Of a stretch of DNA of 64,000 nucleotides, positions 3,486-62,940 are shown piece after piece. This DNA is from an uncultured delta proteobacterium (lineage in GTDB: Bacteria > Desulfobacterota > Binatia > UBA9968): the NCBI GenBank assembly GCA_963755715.1, contig CAVWLW010000057.1:63832-127831 (forward strand), given 5' to 3'. The position numbers were made by a program, and so were the translations under genes. Within the stretch, counting starts at the first letter, position 1. The number at the start of each line of letters is the position of its first letter. The notes beneath the pieces were generated by a model. That model did no database searches. It saw only the letters and a program-made list of their open reading frames with translations, and was not told the origin of the DNA.

Positions 3486-4495
3486 TTCATCAGAAAGTCG
3501 TTGGTGACGATTTCGGAAAACACGACGCGCTTTTTTAATATCCCCGCCTGTTCGAGAATATCTTGCGTGATCTGCACGCTGCGTTCACTGGTCCGCCCGT
3601 CTTTACTGAGCGCCGGTCGAACAGCCTGGACTCCGGCCAGAAGAAGATCCGGTTGAATCGTGGTCATCGACGGTTTAAGTGCCTCGGCCACCTGTTCCGG
3701 CGTGCTTTGCAGCGCCCATTGGTTCGCCTTAGTTAAGGCACGCACCATTCGGCGAATCGTATCTCCATCCTTGGCAACGGTCTCGGGACGCGCAATGAGA
3801 TTTTCCATAAGGAACTCGGGAATCGACGGGTCTTCACCCTTGGCGTTATTGATCAGCAGAATCGCGAAACCGCGGCTGATTGCGGTATCCGGCACGGGTG
3901 GCGCCGTCAAGGCGACATCGACCTTGCGATTTTCCAGGGCGGCAAGCCAGGTCGGCCCCGAACCCACCGGAACAATGTTGACGTCCTGTTGGGGGTTGTA
4001 ACCTGCTTTGCGAATCACGAACGCCGCGAGGTGCGCTGTCAGCGCGCCGGGATTCGTCACGCCGATGGTCAACCCCTTGAGCGCTTTGATTTTGTCGGCG
4101 AGCGGCATGGATTCGGTAACGCCTTTGGATTTTGCTACATCTTTATGCATCGCCCAGTTGATAAACAATTTATTCAAGCCGCTCATCACCATGATCAATT
4201 TCTTGCCTTCCTGCTGGGCAAGAACAACGTTATCACCGGTGGTAAAACTGAAGTCGACATCGCCCGCGATCAGCGCGCGAATGTCAGGTCCGCCACCGTT
4301 TGTCGACGTGACGTCCACCTCCAATTTTTCATCCGCGAAGAAGCCCTTATTCTGTGCCAGAAACACCGGGGTCATCGAGTGTGCGATCACCGGGATCGTG
4401 ATCTTAACCTTTTTTGGAGCTTGCGCTTGCAACGGCAAAGACGAGAATTCCAGATAGAATAAGGCACTGGCCAAAATAATCATGAATCGTTTCAT
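3482..4495 (-). CDS. ABC transporter substrate-binding protein (NitT/TauT, NMT1-like)
   Basis: Signal peptide from MKRFMII; 'KGFFADEKLEV'; overlaps both neighbours by 4 nt. Confidence 0.9.
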   Translation of the reverse strand: MKRFMIILASALFYLEFSSLPLQAQAPKKVKITIPVIAHSMTPVFLAQNKGFFADEKLEVDVTSTNGGGPDIRALIAGDVDFSFTTGDNVVLAQQEGKKLIMVMSGLNKLFINWAMHKDVAKSKGVTESMPLADKIKALKGLTIGVTNPGALTAHLAAFVIRKAGYNPQQDVNIVPVGSGPTWLAALENRKVDVALTAPPVPDTAISRGFAILLINNAKGEDPSIPEFLMENLIARPETVAKDGDTIRRMVRALTKANQWALQSTPEQVAEALKPSMTTIQPDLLLAGVQAVRPALSKDGRTSERSVQITQDILEQAGILKKRVVFSEIVTNDFLMK

Positions 4496-56220: not shown

Positions 56221-56904
56221 ATGCACATCCTCGTCGTTGAAGACGAAAGGAAAGTCGCGAGCTTCATCAAGCGCGGCCTCGAAGCCACTCACTATTCCGT
56301 GGATGTGGAACACGACGGCGAGGCGGGATTGAAACGGCTCCTGGAAGAGGAATATGACCTCGCGATCCTCGACGTCATGCTGCCGAAGCTGGACGGCCTC
56401 AGCGTGATGAAAAAAATACGTCAACAGCGGGTCAACGTGCCGATTCTTTTGCTCACAGCGCGGGTGACGGTGGCCGACAAAGTCCTGGGGCTGGATCTTG
56501 GCGCGGACGATTATCTCACCAAACCGTTCGTCTTCGAAGAATTGCTGGCGCGCGTGCGCGCGCTGCTCCGGCGCGGGGCTCCTGCTCAGCCGGCCATACT
56601 GACCATCGCGGATCTCAGGCTCGATCCGGTGACCCGTGAGGTTAGCCGCGGCAACAAGCGGATCGATTTGACCGCCAAGGAATTCGCGTTGCTCGAGTTT
56701 TTGCTGCGCAGGCGGGACCAGGTTCTCAGCCGCACGGTGATCGCTCAACATGTGTGGGGCATCGATTACGATAGCTTTACCAACGTGATCGACGTGTACG
56801 TGAACTACTTGCGCAAGAAAATCGACAACGACTTCGAGCCCAAGCTGATCCATAGCGTGCGCGGCGTCGGCTACGTGCTGAAGGAAGAGCCGTCGCCATC
56901 ATGA
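56221..56904 (+). CDS. OmpR-family response regulator (CusR/CzcR-like)
   Basis: ILVVEDE, LDVMLP, GADDYLTKPF, HSVRGVGY. Confidence 0.95.
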   Translation: MHILVVEDERKVASFIKRGLEATHYSVDVEHDGEAGLKRLLEEEYDLAILDVMLPKLDGLSVMKKIRQQRVNVPILLLTARVTVADKVLGLDLGADDYLTKPFVFEELLARVRALLRRGAPAQPAILTIADLRLDPVTREVSRGNKRIDLTAKEFALLEFLLRRRDQVLSRTVIAQHVWGIDYDSFTNVIDVYVNYLRKKIDNDFEPKLIHSVRGVGYVLKEEPSPS

Positions 56905-58322
56905 TTTGGCGGTCGACCACGCTCCGGGGCCGTCTGACTCTTTGGTATACGGGAATTCTGACGGCGACGTTCGCCGTGCTGGGCGCGACATCGGTGCTTC
57001 TGCTCGACCGCGGCCTGCGGCAAAACGTCGATGACTCGCTAGACTCAGTCGCCAACGCCATCGCCGACTCTGTCCAACGTCCGTCTTTTTTCGGTCCTGA
57101 ACTTGAAGATTATCTACAGTCGATGCTCGGTCCCGAACTCGCGGAGCGGTTTTTCCAACTGCTCGACCCGTTGGGCCGGCCCGACCCGCGTCTGCTGCCG
57201 CGCACAAGATCGAAGCTGCCGCTCAGCGCCGAAGCGTTGCGCAATGCGGAAAGAGGCCAGGCGACATTCGAGACGGTACGGGACCAGCCCGGATCCGAAA
57301 AGTCATTCCGCCTGCTGACTCTGCCGGTGGTCAGAAACGGCGCGACGGTAAATATCGTCCAGGTGGCCATGTCGTTGGAAAATGTCGAAGCTTCCCGTAG
57401 AAGGTTTCTTCTCATTCTTCTCATCCTGGCGCCCGTGGCTTTGACTGCCTCGGCGTTGGGCGGATGGTTTCTCGCGCGCCGCGCACTCACTCCGGTGGAT
57501 GCGATGGTGGAGGCAGCCCGGCGGATTGAAGCCGAAGATCTGACGCAACGAATCCCCGCTCCATCCGGCGAGGACGAATTAGCGCGCTTGGCCGCAGTGC
57601 TCAACGACATGTTGGCGCGCCTCGAGCGCTCGTTTGTCGCTGCGCGTCGATTCAGCGCGGACGCCGCTCATGAATTGCGCACGCCGCTTACCATTCTTAA
57701 AGGCGAGATCGAAGTCGCGCTCCGCGCCGCCGAGGCGCCCGCGGACATTCGCCGGACATTGGCGAGTTGTCTGGAAGAAGTGGACCGGCTCAATTCGCTG
57801 GTGGAAGATCTACTCCTGATGGCGCGCATGGAGGGCAATGCCTTAAGCGCACTTCCAAAGCCGGTCAACCTAGCCGAAGTGCTGGAAGACGTCGCTCCCG
57901 CCTTGACTGAGCTGGCGGCAAGGGCCGGAAACGTATGCACGGTCGCTGCGGCTCCGCCGCTGTGGATCGAGGGCTATGACTCGTTGCTCTTTCGCCTCGT
58001 TTTCAATCTCGCTGAGAACGCGATCAAGTACACGCCCAGCGGCGGCAAAATCGAGGTCACTCTCGAACAGCAGGACCACTCGGCGGTTTTGCAGGTCAAG
58101 GACAACGGCCCGGGAATCGCGCCCGACGCGCAAGAGCATATTTTCGATCGGTTTTATCAAGGCGATCCGGCCAGAGAAGGCAGCGGTACCGGGCTTGGCT
58201 TGGCGCTGGTCCGTGCGATCGTTGAGCTGCACCACGGCCAGATTCATTTGTCCAGCGCTGTTGGCAAGGGAAGCTGCTTTCGCGTGACCTTTCCGCTGGC
58301 GCCGGCCGCTTCTTCGTCATGA
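56901..58322 (+). CDS. Sensor histidine kinase (HAMP-HisKA-HATPase)
   Basis: Two TM segments; HELRTPL; NAIKY; DNGPGI; GTGLGL. Confidence 0.95.
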   Translation: MIWRSTTLRGRLTLWYTGILTATFAVLGATSVLLLDRGLRQNVDDSLDSVANAIADSVQRPSFFGPELEDYLQSMLGPELAERFFQLLDPLGRPDPRLLPRTRSKLPLSAEALRNAERGQATFETVRDQPGSEKSFRLLTLPVVRNGATVNIVQVAMSLENVEASRRRFLLILLILAPVALTASALGGWFLARRALTPVDAMVEAARRIEAEDLTQRIPAPSGEDELARLAAVLNDMLARLERSFVAARRFSADAAHELRTPLTILKGEIEVALRAAEAPADIRRTLASCLEEVDRLNSLVEDLLLMARMEGNALSALPKPVNLAEVLEDVAPALTELAARAGNVCTVAAAPPLWIEGYDSLLFRLVFNLAENAIKYTPSGGKIEVTLEQQDHSAVLQVKDNGPGIAPDAQEHIFDRFYQGDPAREGSGTGLGLALVRAIVELHHGQIHLSSAVGKGSCFRVTFPLAPAASSS

Positions 58323-58340
58323 AAGAAAACTGAACGAGTC

Positions 58341-58543
58341 TCGGCTGTAAGCCGAAGGGTTCTAATTCGTCGACTGGAAACTCTGGTTCCAATCATTCCG
58401 GCCCTTATCGGCACCCCGGTGAAAACCGGGGTCCATTCCCATCCCCCTTAACCTCGATACCGTTTTCCAACGATGTGACGGACGCTGTCCGTCACCTGGA
58501 TGCCACCGGGAGTTTATCCTGACTCGACGAAGGGCCGGCATGA
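58341..58543. repeat. Composite REP/MITE-like palindromic element (copy 2 of the dispersed repeat)
   Basis: 58341-58402 matches 2449-2515; 13/14-bp inverted repeat 58393-58406 / 58530-58543; internal ccccggt-gaaa-accgggg hairpin. Confidence 0.7.
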
Positions 58544-58597
58544 CGAAACTCTCACTTCGCCTGAAGGCGAGGCATTTTCAACCATCCCGAGAAAGAC

Positions 58598-58635
58598 ATT
58601 AGAAAATTCTAATCCGCTTTTAATTCTCCTCTCAT
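58598..58635 (+). promoter_or_regulatory. Putative OmpR-family binding site upstream of degP
   Basis: TTCTAAT/TTTTAAT/CTCTCAT at exact 11-bp spacing plus palindrome ATTAGAA-AA-TTCTAAT. Confidence 0.55.
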
Positions 58636-58715
58636 CTTTTCGACTTAAACTCTTGTACGAAAACGTTATCGTGAATCATCGTCGTGGACAGACTCTACAA
58701 ACCAGGAGGAGAAAA

Positions 58716-60179
58716 ATGATATCGAAGAGAGAAACTTTTATCGCGAGTGCGCTGGCGGTCGCTTTGGTTGGCGGCGGGTTCGCCGTGGGGCACGAATCGC
58801 AGAGATTGACGGCCCGGGCGGATGGGCATGCGAATAATGCCGCTGCCGCATCCCCATCTCAACCCGGTGCTTTGCCATCGTTTGCTGATCTCGCGGCGCG
58901 GGTCGCGCCGGCGGTGGTCAATATCAAAGTAACGTCGATTGCCAAGGCCGATTTTCCGGACCAGCTTTTCGGCGAGAATTTTCCTTTTCCAGGCTTCCGC
59001 ATGCCGATGCCCCAGCAACCGGAGCAGTTCAAACGTCAGGGCACCGGATCGGGATTCATCATTCGCAAAGACGGCCTGATCCTGACCAATAACCACGTTG
59101 TGGCCAATGCTCAGGAGATTACCGTGACCCTGAGCGACAAACAGCAATACAAGGGCAAAGTTCTCGGACTCGACCCGAAGACCGATTTGGCGGTCATCAA
59201 GATCGAGCCTAAGGATTCTTTGCCGGCTGTGACCCTCGGTAACTCCGAGATGCTTCGTGTCGGAGACTGGGTGATGGCGATCGGCAACCCCTTCGGATTG
59301 AGTAACACGGTGACCACGGGAATCGTCAGTGCCAAGGGGAGAACGATCGGAGCCGGTCCGTACGATGATTTCATTCAAACCGATGCATCGATCAATCCAG
59401 GCAATTCCGGCGGTCCGCTTTTCAACACGGCGGGTGAAGTCGTTGGCATCAACACCGCTATTTTCAGCCAGAATGGCGGCAATATCGGTATCGGTTTCGC
59501 TATTCCGGCGAACCTCGTGAAAAATCTCGTTCCGGAACTGGAAACCAAGGGCACGGTCACGCGCGGCTGGCTCGGTGTTTCGGTTCAGCCCGTGACGCCT
59601 GATCTCGCGCGCTCTCTTGGCGTCGACAAAGAGCGCGGCGCGCTCGTCGGCGATGTCGTGGCTCAAGGCCCCGCAGAAAAGGCGGGAATCAAACGCGGTG
59701 ATGTGATCGTCAGTTATGACGGGAAGAAAATCGACGAGTCGACGACCCTACCCGGTCTTGTCGCTGCTACGGGGGTGGGTAAGACCGTCCCGGTGGAAAT
59801 TCTGCGTGACGGAAAGATGAAAACCATCAATGTAGCCATCAGCAAGCTCAACGATTCGACCGCGGCACTAAACACAAAGCAGGAAAAGAGTGAGTGGGGA
59901 TTGGCCTTGCAAGACATCCAGCCCGAAGAGCGACGCCAGATGGGTCTCACGGGAAGCGAAGGCGTGATAGTGACTGCGGTCATGCCCGGCAGCCCGGCTG
60001 CGAACGCAGGCATCCACGCCGGCGACGTGATCTTGCAAGTCAACCAAGCTCCGGTGACCTCGGTGCAAGGCGTGAAAGATGAAGTTGCCAAAGCCAAGGG
60101 GGACAAGCCGCTGCTTGTGTTGCTGCGCCGCGCCGATGGCAGCACGTCGTTCGCCGCTTTGTCGCGCAACGTTGGTTAA
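58716..60179 (+). CDS. DegP/DegQ (HtrA) serine endoprotease
   Basis: TNNHVV, DLAV, GNSGGP, two PDZ domains; AGGAGG RBS. Confidence 0.95.
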   Translation: MISKRETFIASALAVALVGGGFAVGHESQRLTARADGHANNAAAASPSQPGALPSFADLAARVAPAVVNIKVTSIAKADFPDQLFGENFPFPGFRMPMPQQPEQFKRQGTGSGFIIRKDGLILTNNHVVANAQEITVTLSDKQQYKGKVLGLDPKTDLAVIKIEPKDSLPAVTLGNSEMLRVGDWVMAIGNPFGLSNTVTTGIVSAKGRTIGAGPYDDFIQTDASINPGNSGGPLFNTAGEVVGINTAIFSQNGGNIGIGFAIPANLVKNLVPELETKGTVTRGWLGVSVQPVTPDLARSLGVDKERGALVGDVVAQGPAEKAGIKRGDVIVSYDGKKIDESTTLPGLVAATGVGKTVPVEILRDGKMKTINVAISKLNDSTAALNTKQEKSEWGLALQDIQPEERRQMGLTGSEGVIVTAVMPGSPAANAGIHAGDVILQVNQAPVTSVQGVKDEVAKAKGDKPLLVLLRRADGSTSFAALSRNVG

Positions 60180-60218
60180 ACTCTCGGAACAGGAACACTA
60201 ACACCGTCAGACAGACAT

Positions 60219-60257
60219 AGGGGGTAGGCCGGTTTTTCGACTCGGCCTATCCCCTTT
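60219..60257 (+). terminator. Probable terminator hairpin after degP
   Basis: AGGGGGTAGGCCG...CGGCCTATCCCCT-TT. Confidence 0.65.
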
Positions 60258-60424
60258 GACGATTCTCGCCTCGCCATCACGAAAGAATTTTCGGATCTCG
60301 CATCGATGCATCCCTGGTTATGCGTCGTAGCGCATTGGAAACCCGCGAAAATACGGCAGGTCAGAATAACGGCTGTCGGCGAACGAAGTTGAGGACAGCG
60401 CAAAATTTTTTGCGCGTATCGACT

Positions 60425-60808
60425 GTGGATCTAAAAACCAAATTGCTGGAATTGTCGGGCGGAAATTACCTCATGATCATCGCTCGCGGACAAGTCGACG
60501 CAGAGGGACTCGAAGAAATTTTTCGCGAGGTCTCGGCGACAAGCAAATCCCGTTTAAATTTTAAGGTCTTGATTGATCTGGCGGACAGCAGAATAAGATT
60601 TGCTCTTCCGGATATCGATGTCCTTGTTAATAGCCTCGAGCATCATTTGTTGCACCGTAACATCCAAGTTGCATTTCTGTCGTCAACGGAGATCCACGAG
60701 TTCGATCGGCTGAGCGTCCTGTGCGCTTCCCTACGCAGCCTGGGTTTGAAGGTCGCGGCGTTCGATGACGCAAAAAGCGCTGTTGTCTGGCTCGCCGATA
60801 TAACCTAG
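60425..60808 (+). CDS. STAS/SpoIIAA-like hypothetical protein (start uncertain)
   Basis: 'KVLIDL', 'VAF', 'GLKVAAFDDAKSAVVWL' pattern. Confidence 0.65.
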   Translation: MDLKTKLLELSGGNYLMIIARGQVDAEGLEEIFREVSATSKSRLNFKVLIDLADSRIRFALPDIDVLVNSLEHHLLHRNIQVAFLSSTEIHEFDRLSVLCASLRSLGLKVAAFDDAKSAVVWLADIT

Positions 60809-61073: not shown

Positions 61074-61132
61074 GGCAAAACGCCTGGACTAACTTTTACA
61101 CGCTGATATAGTCGCCGAGTCTGCCGCTGCCT

Positions 61133-62758
61133 ATGGAAGCGTTTAGTCCGCAGTTCTTTATCCTGACCTTAGCCCTGGTGGGCGTGGTGATTATCGTCGC
61201 TGCGCTTCTATCCGGCTTCATCGATCGCAGCGATATTCCTCAGGTCGGTGTTTTCCTCGCGCTCGGCGCGATGCTCGGGCCTGCCGGGTTGCAATTATTG
61301 AATGTTTCTCTCGATTCCCCGATCCTGCGCGTCGTCGCAACCTTAAGCCTTGTGCTGGTGTTGTTTACCGACGCCGTGAGCTTGAGCATCGCCGAGATCC
61401 GGCGTCATCGTCTTTTAGCTTTTCTTGTAATCGGGCCGGGCACTTTGCTGTCGGCGGCGCTCATCGCGCTCGCGGCATGGATGCTTTTGGATTTTTCGCC
61501 GGCGTCGGCGGTGATGATCGGCGCTGCTCTGGCATCGACCGATCCGGTGATGCTGCGCGGCTTGTTGAGACGGCCGGGGCTTCCTGGAACGGTGCGCCTG
61601 GCGTTGCGTCTGGAAAGCGGCCTGAACGATATCGTCCTGCTGCCGATCATTCTCGTCGCTATGGCTACGTTGAGCCATAGCAATCTTTTCGGCGTCGAAT
61701 CCGCGCGCCTTGGGCTTGAGCTATTTCTCCTCGGGCCCGGAGCTGGCGTCACGGTCGGTTTGCTGGCGATCGGAGCGCTGGAATTGGTGCGGCGCAAAAC
61801 CGGCGTGCGCCGCGACTACGAATCTTTATACTCGCTGGGCGTGGCATTTGCGGCTTATGCGGCGGCCGAAGCCGTACATGGTAGCGGCTTCTTGGCCGCT
61901 TTCTGCGCCGGATTGACGATTGCCGCTCTCGACGTGGAACTATGCGACTGCTTTCTCGAATACGGCCAGACCACCGCCGAGATGACGTTGCTCTTCACCT
62001 TCATCCTGTTCGGCAGCTCGCTCATATGGCAAGGGCTGCTCGTGCTGAACCTAATGACTGTACTCTTCGCCGTAACGCTGGTGTTGATCCGGCCGATCGT
62101 CTTCCTCTTGTCTTTGTCGCGCACCAACCTTGAGCGCCGGAGCTGTTTTTTGATCGCATGGTTTGGACCGCGCGGCCTGAGCTCCTTACTATTGATCCTC
62201 GTGCCGGTATTCGCCGGTGTGCCGGGCAGCGAGCAGTTGTTCGTCGTATGCTGCCTCGTCGTCTTGCTCTCGGTGGCGCTGCACGGCGGCTCGTTGATGT
62301 TGCTGGCTCGAACACCGCCGCCGCCCGCTTCTTTGAGCACTGCTCAAATCGACTCGGCAACGCCGCCAGCGAATGACGGCGCGCCGCGGCCAATCGCCGC
62401 TGCGAACGACAGCGATCGTATATCGGTCGAAGAACTCCGCGCGCTGCAATCCGCCGGCGCTCCCTTGTTGATCGTCGACGTCCGCGCCGAGACCAGTTTC
62501 AACTCCAGCCCATTTCAAGCTCAAGGCGCGCTACGAATACCCGCCGACCAAATCGTCCGCCGAATCGCCGAACTCAACGTGCCGCGCCAAACCTGGATCA
62601 TTACGTTCTGCGCTTGACCCGACGAAGCCACCAGCGCCCGTGCGGCGCAGGACCTAAAACGAGCCGGATGGGAGCGCGCGCGGGCGCTAATTGCCGGGTG
62701 GGACGCTTGGCAAGCCGCCGGACTACCGATCGAAGAGAAGCCAAGTCTGAATGTCTGA
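61133..62758 (+). CDS. NhaP/CPA1 cation:proton antiporter fused to a rhodanese domain; probable selenoprotein (UGA at 62615-62617)
   Basis: STDPV, ESGLND, WFGPRG antiporter motifs; rhodanese 'IVDVR...FCA-UGA-PDEATSARAAQDLKRAGWERARALIAGWDAWQAAGLPIEEK'; SECIS-like hairpin. Confidence 0.8.
62631..62651 (+). promoter_or_regulatory. Putative bacterial SECIS element
   Basis: CC-A-GCGCC-[CGUGC]-GGCGC-A-GG hairpin; loop starts after a 21-nt spacer from the UGA and has G at position 2. Confidence 0.65.
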
Positions 62759-62940
62759 TGACGCGCGCTCGCGAGAATCCGTAAATTCATGAGACTTCGT
62801 ATTCTGTCGGATCATTATTCTTTTATTTCTAAATGATTCCGAGTGGCCCGCGACTTGCTCGCTTTAAGATCTGAAATTCAAAACGTCACGACGATTCCGC
62901 TGTATCGTCGCACTAGAGGGATTATCGCCAAGGCGCGCCG

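Follow-up and report, generated by a model that had tools for sequence, protein, structure and literature searches.

Among the described antiporters of the cation:proton antiporter (CPA) superfamily, KefC (in its complex with glutathione), SLC9C1, SOS1 and NHE3-CHP1 all carry C-terminal regulatory domains, so that a CPA transport module is followed by a cytoplasmic regulatory module. On the selenoprotein side, passages in selenoproteome reviews list a 'CxU' rhodanese form, and the NCBIfam family NF041203 ('rhodanese_LYCAU, rhodanese-related (seleno)protein') models this domain as a stand-alone protein of ~126 residues. Here we describe a gene, in a 64,000-nt stretch (the window) of contig CAVWLW010000057.1 from an uncultured delta proteobacterium of the Binatia, that very probably joins the two: its product is predicted to be one 541-residue fusion of an NhaP/CPA1 antiporter and a CxU rhodanese, with an in-frame UGA decoded as selenocysteine (Sec).

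Selenocysteine has been predicted before in transport proteins of the membrane. In the SO_0444 Cu/Zn efflux protein (UxC), MerT-like proteins, an E1-E2 ATPase (UxxC), YeeE/YedE, Sao ABC subunits and TsoB, Sec lies within short Cys/Sec motifs, and in TsoB, a rhodanese/DsbD fusion, a rhodanese domain is likewise joined to a membrane protein. A 2026 review connects the majority of predicted transporter-type selenoproteins with resistance to metals or metalloids and notes that Sec may serve as a metal ligand. None of the proteins named above is, however, a CPA/Na_H_Exchanger protein, and no CPA member appears in that review's list of transporter-type selenoproteins. The words 'antiporter' and 'exchanger' are absent from the main text of two selenoproteome reviews and of the deep-Sep paper, whose supplementary tables may list the fusion. 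Full-text literature searches on selenoproteins with rhodanese/antiporter, NhaP, proton antiporter or Acidobacteriota returned nothing relevant by title or abstract. An earlier reading of this DNA, made from the sequence without database searches (the original prediction), had stated that stand-alone rhodanese selenoproteins are known and that a selenoprotein ion antiporter is not. The first statement is borne out by NF041203 and the reviews' CxU form, and the literature searched agrees with the second, supplementary tables aside. The predicted Sec-bearing domain is itself of the catalogued CxU (LYCAU) selenoprotein type; what appears to be new is its fusion to a CPA1 antiporter.

The in-frame TGA and the tail behind it

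On the + strand, an open reading frame (61133-62617) begins with an ATG that is consistent with the N-termini of homologues and encodes 494 residues, ending ...WIITFCA at TGA 62615-62617. Past this codon the frame stays open for another 46 codons, PDEATSARAAQDLKRAGWERARALIAGWDAWQAAGLPIEEKPSLNV, up to TGA 62756-62758. The Pfam Rhodanese match (residues 431-529) spans the first TGA, confirming that the 494-residue frame stops in the middle of a rhodanese domain and continues to 62758. The presence of PF00999 and PF00581 in one frame likewise bears out the proposed 541-residue antiporter-rhodanese product. The gene closes on two consecutive TGA codons (tgatga, 62756-62761), and the same codon would thus serve as Sec and as stop within one gene.

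We compared the codon at this position at two depths. A genus-level search covered 60 related genomes and the window's own and gave matches in 14 genomes. Eight of these matches, the window's included, reach residue 495 (67-100% identity), and each of the eight holds exactly one TGA. Two more orthologues are clipped by contig ends before residue 495, and the remaining four matches are 27-28% identical paralogues without the rhodanese tail. A one-genome-per-species scan returned 467 relatives. In the best 80 of these (six are the same records as in the genus-level search) the aligned codon is TGA at 75 loci, TGT at four and TGC at one, with no earlier in-frame stop at any of the 80. The expectation that TGA in several genomes would align to TGC or TGT in others is therefore what the 80 loci display. 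They span more than ten phyla. Judged from record titles and tree labels, the TGA form occurs in Binatia, Acidobacteriota (Pyrinomonadaceae, Thermoanaerobaculia, Bryobacteraceae and others), Chloroflexota, Verrucomicrobiota, Armatimonadota, Planctomycetota, Gemmatimonadota, Nitrospinota, Eisenbacteria and several metagenome-assembled genomes (MAGs) labelled 'delta proteobacterium'.

The motif around the codon is well kept. Homologues read (Y/F/L)C(A/T/S/G/L)-TGA, where the gene described here reads FCA-TGA, and a homologue of 44% identity from the window's phylum (G311) retains VVLYCA-TGA-THEATSARVA. The Cys-form proteins read FC[AD]CPNEETS or FCTCPDEATS and align at the same column, in agreement with the proposal that the TGA occupies a Cys position of rhodanese homologues.

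Behind the TGA, the frame runs for 41-58 codons to a real stop at the 79 loci with a measurable end (L056 is clipped by a contig end and was excluded from this count, from the gene tree and from the entropy count). That stop is TGA in 46 of the 79 homologues, which argues that the genetic code is not reassigned. Among 74 distinct Sec-form sequences, tail positions G+17, W+18, A+21, A+23, L+24, G+26, G+27, W+28 and W+31 are nearly or fully invariant. Tryptophan has a single codon; the third positions of the non-Trp codons among these residues carry 1.6-1.9 bits. The tail, whose conservation over 46 codons the original prediction had made decisive, is thus conserved as protein and variable at synonymous sites, as would be the case for a translated sequence under selection.

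The 120 best homologues in the protein database comprise 109 entries that stop precisely at FC(A/S/T), six fragments and five proteins that carry Cys at the site and continue past it; one of these five is 92% identical to the window's protein. Several of the NCBI entries are named simply 'cation:proton antiporter'. Truncation by gene callers, which had been foreseen, is the fate of these 109 entries.

Independent sequence data were also considered. Near-identical sequence occurs in soil and rhizosphere metagenomes, with 14 DNA entries from ten studies containing at least half of the sampled words. A 1362-nt metagenome contig (X2), which may come from the source sample, covers 62300-62841 with three differences, none of them at the TGA. 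The TGA is also crossed by a 151-nt RNA-library contig (X16, 62547-62697), for which no difference is listed at that codon, although its presence is not proof of transcription. Against both contigs, then, the TGA stands as assembled. Two further data sets, X1 and X15, span only parts of the stretch, and the uncovered parts carry no evidential weight.

The gene tree was built by a quick search and midpoint-rooted for drawing only, so the direction of codon change is not readable from it; the Cys forms require at least two separate changes. Phyla are mixed on this tree, with Verrucomicrobiota and Eisenbacteria rows within the Binatia group and a Gemmataceae row beside Acidobacteriota (L046, L055, L094 and others). 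A sample of 401 genomes of the window's phylum, searched at E <= 1e-80, contained the gene in two, a figure that speaks to patchiness only and not to absence. The phylum-mixed tree and this sparse occurrence hint at horizontal spread among soil bacteria.

A candidate SECIS hairpin and the selenocysteine machinery

As set out in passages of PMC1088965, a bacterial selenocysteine insertion sequence (SECIS) is a stem-loop just past the UGA with a small apical loop that contains a G. Because single-sequence folding was not distinctive here, we turned to comparative RNA analysis. RNAalifold, run unguided on 76 Sec-form sequences, found a hairpin at +17 to +31 that is kept in all 76. Every one of the 380 stem cells (5 bp x 76) is paired, among them six as G-U, two as U-G and one through a compensatory C-G to U-A change. 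Across the Sec forms the hairpin reads GCGCC-CG(U/G)G(U/C)-GGCGC, and its small, G-containing apical loop matches the literature description. The loop is CGUGU in 39 sequences, CGGGU in 27 and CGUGC in 10, with G at position 2 and a GU dinucleotide in 76 of 76. CGGGC, the sole codon combination without GU, is absent among the 76. A GU dinucleotide is important in the E. coli SECIS element.

The coding sequence bears the imprint of this structure. Third-codon-position entropy, calculated over the 74 distinct Sec forms, is zero at codons +6 (AGC in 74/74), +7, +9 and +10, which supply the bases that build the hairpin stem. The 44%-identical homologue has the hairpin at the same place. In the five Cys forms only 16 of 25 stem cells are paired, no better than in slid-register controls.

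Many otherwise unrelated soil metagenome and metatranscriptome contigs match the window only over ~62608-62650, which comprises the Cys codon, the intervening residue, the TGA, the spacer and the hairpin, and have different flanks. Other CxU rhodanese genes thus seem to have this Sec site and SECIS core in common with the antiporter gene at the nucleotide level. A second small gene of the same genome carries a comparable block: on contig C50, with its TGA at 4263 (L122), a short frame reads VVLYCS-TGA-PNEPTSARVA and is followed by a hairpin-like block similar to the antiporter SECIS. The open frame at this locus takes in no more than the second half of a rhodanese domain, so the locus could be a gene fragment or else a stand-alone LYCAU-type gene with a frameshift.

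The machinery for Sec incorporation was sought in the source genome (7.4 Mb in 76 contigs, 93.6% complete). The tRNA-Sec scores 76.7 bits against a model cut-off of 47 and is called tRNA-SeC with anticodon TCA by ARAGORN. The selA gene scores 617 bits, selB (416 bits) directly adjoins it and selD adjoins the pair. The original prediction had looked to selABCD, and all four genes are indeed present; selD, however, appears frameshifted in this assembly. This selD, which carries its own TGA at the Sec position of Sec-type SelD (...KAAG-TGA-AAKLGP...), lies outside the window on contig C3 at ~71086-72013 (loci L018/L019). Its reading frame shifts near 71650, where a short A/G run seems to contain one base too many. 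Of five sister genomes with the antiporter, four have selD as a single frame with one TGA, from which we take the lesion to be local; the search found no selD in the fifth (92% complete). Either a mistake in the assembly or a recent mutation would account for the lesion.

We also asked how selA is distributed between the two codon forms. It scored over the cut-off in all five Sec-form genomes tested (L094, L108, L064, L087 and L072) and in none of the five Cys-form genomes (L060, L061, L065, L090 and L104). The Sec form appears to be maintained wherever Sec machinery is present, with a Cys codon where selA was not found. The original prediction had named four conditions that would overturn Sec decoding, and on each of them the result favours Sec. 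In the decoding that we propose, SelB and tRNA-Sec would read UGA 62615-62617 as selenocysteine, directed by the SECIS hairpin at 62634-62648 inside the coding sequence.

The antiporter and rhodanese modules

The architecture was examined with an AlphaFold2 model built from a 20-sequence alignment; an alignment of the same size was used to score residue invariance. The model has a mean predicted local distance difference test score (pLDDT) of 74 and a predicted template modelling score (pTM) of 0.64. It contains ~13 membrane helices, two of them broken, with breaks at 134-138 and 344-351. The closest structures are PaNhaP (4cz8, 4cz9 and 4cza) and MjNhaP1 (4czb), which are the top Foldseek matches (E 1e-11, TM 0.70-0.72 normalised to the target) and have a similar number of helices. 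Both share PF00999 with the window's protein, whose TDP, ND and GPRG motifs align to PaNhaP, and phmmer matches 4cz8 and 4cza at E 5e-10. Identity is nevertheless ~20%, and PaNhaP lacks the rhodanese domain, Sec and the C-[D/E]-C motif. Among the NCBIfam models, those for K+/H+ antiporters score highest, but their 140 and 128 bits stay below equivalog level (cut-offs 355 and 309), and TIGR00831 gives 41 bits against 280. Since these scores fall far below the cut-offs, we leave the transported ion unassigned.

The C271-D272-C273 motif at the start of a membrane helix is a second CxC-type motif within the same protein. It reads C-E-C in the 44%-identical homologue and is absent from PaNhaP and from all four non-fused CPA1 paralogues. 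The Arg/Lys-rich loops 87-95, 144-155, 219-231 and 328-337 share parity with the C-terminus, which by the positive-inside rule suggests that the rhodanese domain is cytoplasmic. By helix parity and the same rule, C271-D-C273 would face the cytoplasm, on the same side as the rhodanese domain.

The organisation of the protein follows the plan of KefC, SLC9C1, SOS1 and NHE3-CHP1, all of which are among its structural neighbours, with the C-terminal module here probably cytoplasmic as well. The folds of the regulatory domains differ, so that the likeness is an analogy of working rather than one of membership. The Pfam search returned PF00999 and PF00581 only, with no KTN/RCK or nucleotide-binding domain, and KefC is a distant structural match (root-mean-square deviation ~13). 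KefC responds to glutathione adducts. This response offers a functional analogy for what may be a thiol/selenol-based gate.

The rhodanese domain is modelled with a pLDDT of mostly 87-93 per ten-residue block, with two blocks at 75-76. A strand (488-492) leads into the loop C493-A-U495-P-D-E (493-498), which is followed by a helix (499-510). NF041203 matches at E 1.9e-24 (85.7 bits) over positions 15-126 of its 126. The two have the same domain and the same C-x-U motif, homologues of the fusion read (L/A)YCA-TGA, and the TGA-plus-hairpin block recurs in the second small gene described above. In contrast to the stand-alone protein modelled by NF041203, the domain is here a C-terminal module behind a transporter of 390 residues and ~13 helices. 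A weak match to NF045694 (E 0.0033) was also recorded. Searches for other architectures with this rhodanese subtype returned mostly the same antiporters and five multi-rhodanese proteins; a CxC motif of this active-site type occurs in none of the five, one of which has an unrelated C-V-C.

A second candidate rhodanese selenoprotein is encoded on contig C75 of the same genome, with its TGA at 62658 (L119). It is predicted to be periplasmic and begins with a hydrophobic stretch that resembles a signal sequence. In its motif, VVLY-TGA-A-C-P-H-H, the two residues have changed places, so that Sec comes first and Cys third. This arrangement suggests that the functional unit is the Cys/Sec pair and not a single set position.

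The features of the gene are collected in Table 1. Apart from the promoter-like site listed there, the promoter and terminator scan around the gene gave nothing above shuffles. Upstream on the same strand, the window encodes a HAMP-HisKA-HATPase sensor kinase (56901-58322), a DegP/HtrA-like protease with two PDZ domains (58500-60179) and a 162-residue open reading frame without a Pfam match (60320-60808). Together these genes (56901-60808) look like an envelope-stress context that is not conserved beside the antiporter in other phyla, and no functional link from them to the antiporter was found. In the flanks of 79 loci no neighbour is conserved beyond close relatives, the largest cluster comprising 15 loci.

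Table 1. Positions in the window of the predicted selenoprotein gene and its features
Feature	Position	Strand	Remark
Whole predicted selenoprotein gene	61133..62758	+	541 codons plus terminal TGA; residue 495 = predicted Sec
Promoter-like site TGGACT-16-TATAGT	61085..61112	+	Weak hint; 1 site vs 0.9 expected in shuffles, not significant
NhaP/CPA1-type cation:proton antiporter domain, residues 22-391	61196..62305	+	PF00999 E 6e-37, 127.8 bits (cut-off 26.2)
T136-D137-P138 in broken helix (123-134, 138-145)	61538..61546	+	Invariant 20/20; aligned to ATDP of PaNhaP
N165-D166, 'ND' pair of ion-site helix	61625..61630	+	Invariant 20/20; aligned to PaNhaP ND
C271-D272-C273, CxC motif, start of helix 272-303	61943..61951	+	Invariant 20/20
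Flexible Pro/Ala-rich linker, residues 394-425	62312..62407	+	pLDDT < 50; length varies among homologues
CxU (LYCAU)-type rhodanese domain, residues 431-529	62423..62719	+	PF00581 E 1.1e-6, 29.5 bits (cut-off 22.2)
Cys493 codon TGC, predicted Sec partner in C-x-U	62609..62611	+	Cys in 74/74 distinct Sec forms; invariant 20/20
In-frame TGA, predicted Sec495, rhodanese active-site loop	62615..62617	+	TGA in 75/80 loci; loop position from the model
Candidate SECIS hairpin GCGCC-CGUGC-GGCGC, 5-bp stem, 5-nt loop	62634..62648	+	Starts 16 nt past UGA
True terminal stop TGA, second TGA immediately after	62756..62758	+	Homologues end 41-58 codons past Sec codon

The proposed role of the rhodanese domain and alternative readings

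Taken as a whole, Sec decoding, the fused architecture and a sensor or gate role together are likely to be the best explanation of the locus, with the parts held at different strengths. In the mechanism that we envisage, a linker of ~32 residues would tether the rhodanese domain, probably in the cytoplasm, to an antiporter with an intact TDP/ND ion site. Cys493 and Sec495 would form a reactive thiol/selenol pair answering to oxidants, electrophiles, and sulfane sulfur or selenium. The state of the tethered domain would then modulate ion exchange, possibly through the invariant C271-[D/E]-C273 on the same face. We put forward tentatively, at somewhat less than even chances, that the domain senses redox state or electrophiles and gates cation/proton exchange accordingly, possibly by way of the C-[D/E]-C motif. 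The more specific version, in which the tethered Cys-x-Sec domain opens or closes the antiporter on oxidants, electrophiles or reactive sulfur and selenium, perhaps through a selenenyl-sulfide with C-[D/E]-C, is a little more doubtful again. A gate would be consistent with the subfamily-specific CxC, with antiporter neighbours that have regulatory C-terminal domains and with the lack of a conserved partner gene.

Several observations weigh against the reading as a fused, Sec-containing sensor. Four concern the hairpin. Folding of the single sequence 62606-62680 does not give it (z-score 0.27), the minimum free energy structure being a different one. The short stem is invariant at most of its positions, which leaves few events as the basis for covariation. 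We dropped a possible extension by three pairs (alignment columns 23-25 with 41-43), since it is poorly kept: 71, 44 and 10 of 75 cells are paired, although the middle pair shows nine both-side changes. A search against Rfam at permissive thresholds returned four chance-level matches and no SECIS family. As to the protein, the NF041203 score is below the cut-off of 115 bits, as is the 82.5 bits of the domain in a search of the whole genome, in which no copy exceeds the cut-off. The HMMER alignments disagree on which residue is the canonical catalytic Cys, with U495 aligned to the Cys of 6mxv domain 1 and C493 aligned to the Cys of 1yt8 domain 2, and the active-site loop is acidic (P-D/N-E). 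As to the genomes, the apparent selD frameshift would, if real, mean that the strain could not make Sec. The absence of selA from the Cys-form genomes is weak evidence because these genomes may be incomplete, one of them measuring only 1.7 Mb. Finally, we infer the gating role, the cytoplasmic location and the CxU-CxC contact, and the case for Sec incorporation is a comparative one.

The main functional rival to a sensor gate is a catalytic or hand-off role, which we regard as unlikely, if far from negligible. Here the Sec-rhodanese would pass a persulfide, perselenide or thiophilic metal to or from C-[D/E]-C at the mouth of the transporter, and the CPA module would move or respond to something besides plain Na+ or K+. 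Rhodanese domains are classically sulfur carriers, the protein has two CxC-type motifs, one per module, and the tie to metal and metalloid resistance drawn in the 2026 review cited above, with Sec as a possible metal ligand, would fit such a role. Against it, the canonical monovalent-cation site is invariant at TDP and ND and no sulfur, selenium or metal genes are conserved beside the gene; the acidic active-site loop also appears unlike thiosulfate-binding loops.

The view that the TGA is a genuine stop, with the antiporter ending at residue 494 and the downstream 46 codons being a decaying remnant or a separate peptide, is very improbable. It accords with the way gene callers and NCBI annotate these genes and with the apparently frameshifted selD. 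It also draws on how common such open tails are: of the 52 long frames in the window, 14 stay open for at least 46 codons past their stop (P ~0.17 from base composition). Because the open tail is no better than chance, the case for Sec rests on homology, conservation and the RNA signal, and these speak against a stop. A stop would cut inside the rhodanese fold, the tail is under selection as protein in more than ten phyla, and neither a start codon nor a separate gene fits it. Cys codons replace the TGA at five loci, in the genomes where selA was not found, and the hairpin is conserved after the TGA in TGA forms only.

Slightly less probable still is that the UGA is read as Trp, Cys or Gly without a Sec system, or that it is an assembly error: near-cognate UGA read-through does occur at low levels in bacteria and there is at least one probable indel elsewhere in the assembly, in selD, yet selA tracks the TGA form (5/5 versus 0/5), the hairpin has SECIS hallmarks, and the same TGA stands in 75 separate assemblies, with no difference listed at this codon in the contigs spanning it.

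The fusion of a CxU rhodanese to a CPA1 antiporter therefore remains our preferred reading, and it represents a widespread family, with its 467 relatives in species-representative genomes and many soil lineages, stored almost everywhere in truncated form as "cation:proton antiporter". Since the entries are stored truncated, selenoproteome censuses that use stand-alone models can miss it. The very small, highly conserved coding-region SECIS, which seems to be common to the stand-alone CxU rhodaneses as well, would be a useful search pattern for related genes. The placement of a Sec-bearing, probably cytoplasmic domain on an ion exchanger suggests the hypothesis that redox state or electrophiles control pH and cation homeostasis. 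This gating hypothesis should be testable at the bench, since one carrier (L108) is titled as a strain rather than a MAG and has selA. If true, the CPA superfamily would gain its first selenoprotein, and Sec chemistry would underlie a protective system of the Kef kind. In many abundant soil lineages, most of them uncultured and among them the Binatia, Acidobacteriota and Chloroflexota, the protein would tie K+/Na+ homeostasis and cytoplasmic pH to selenium status and redox stress.

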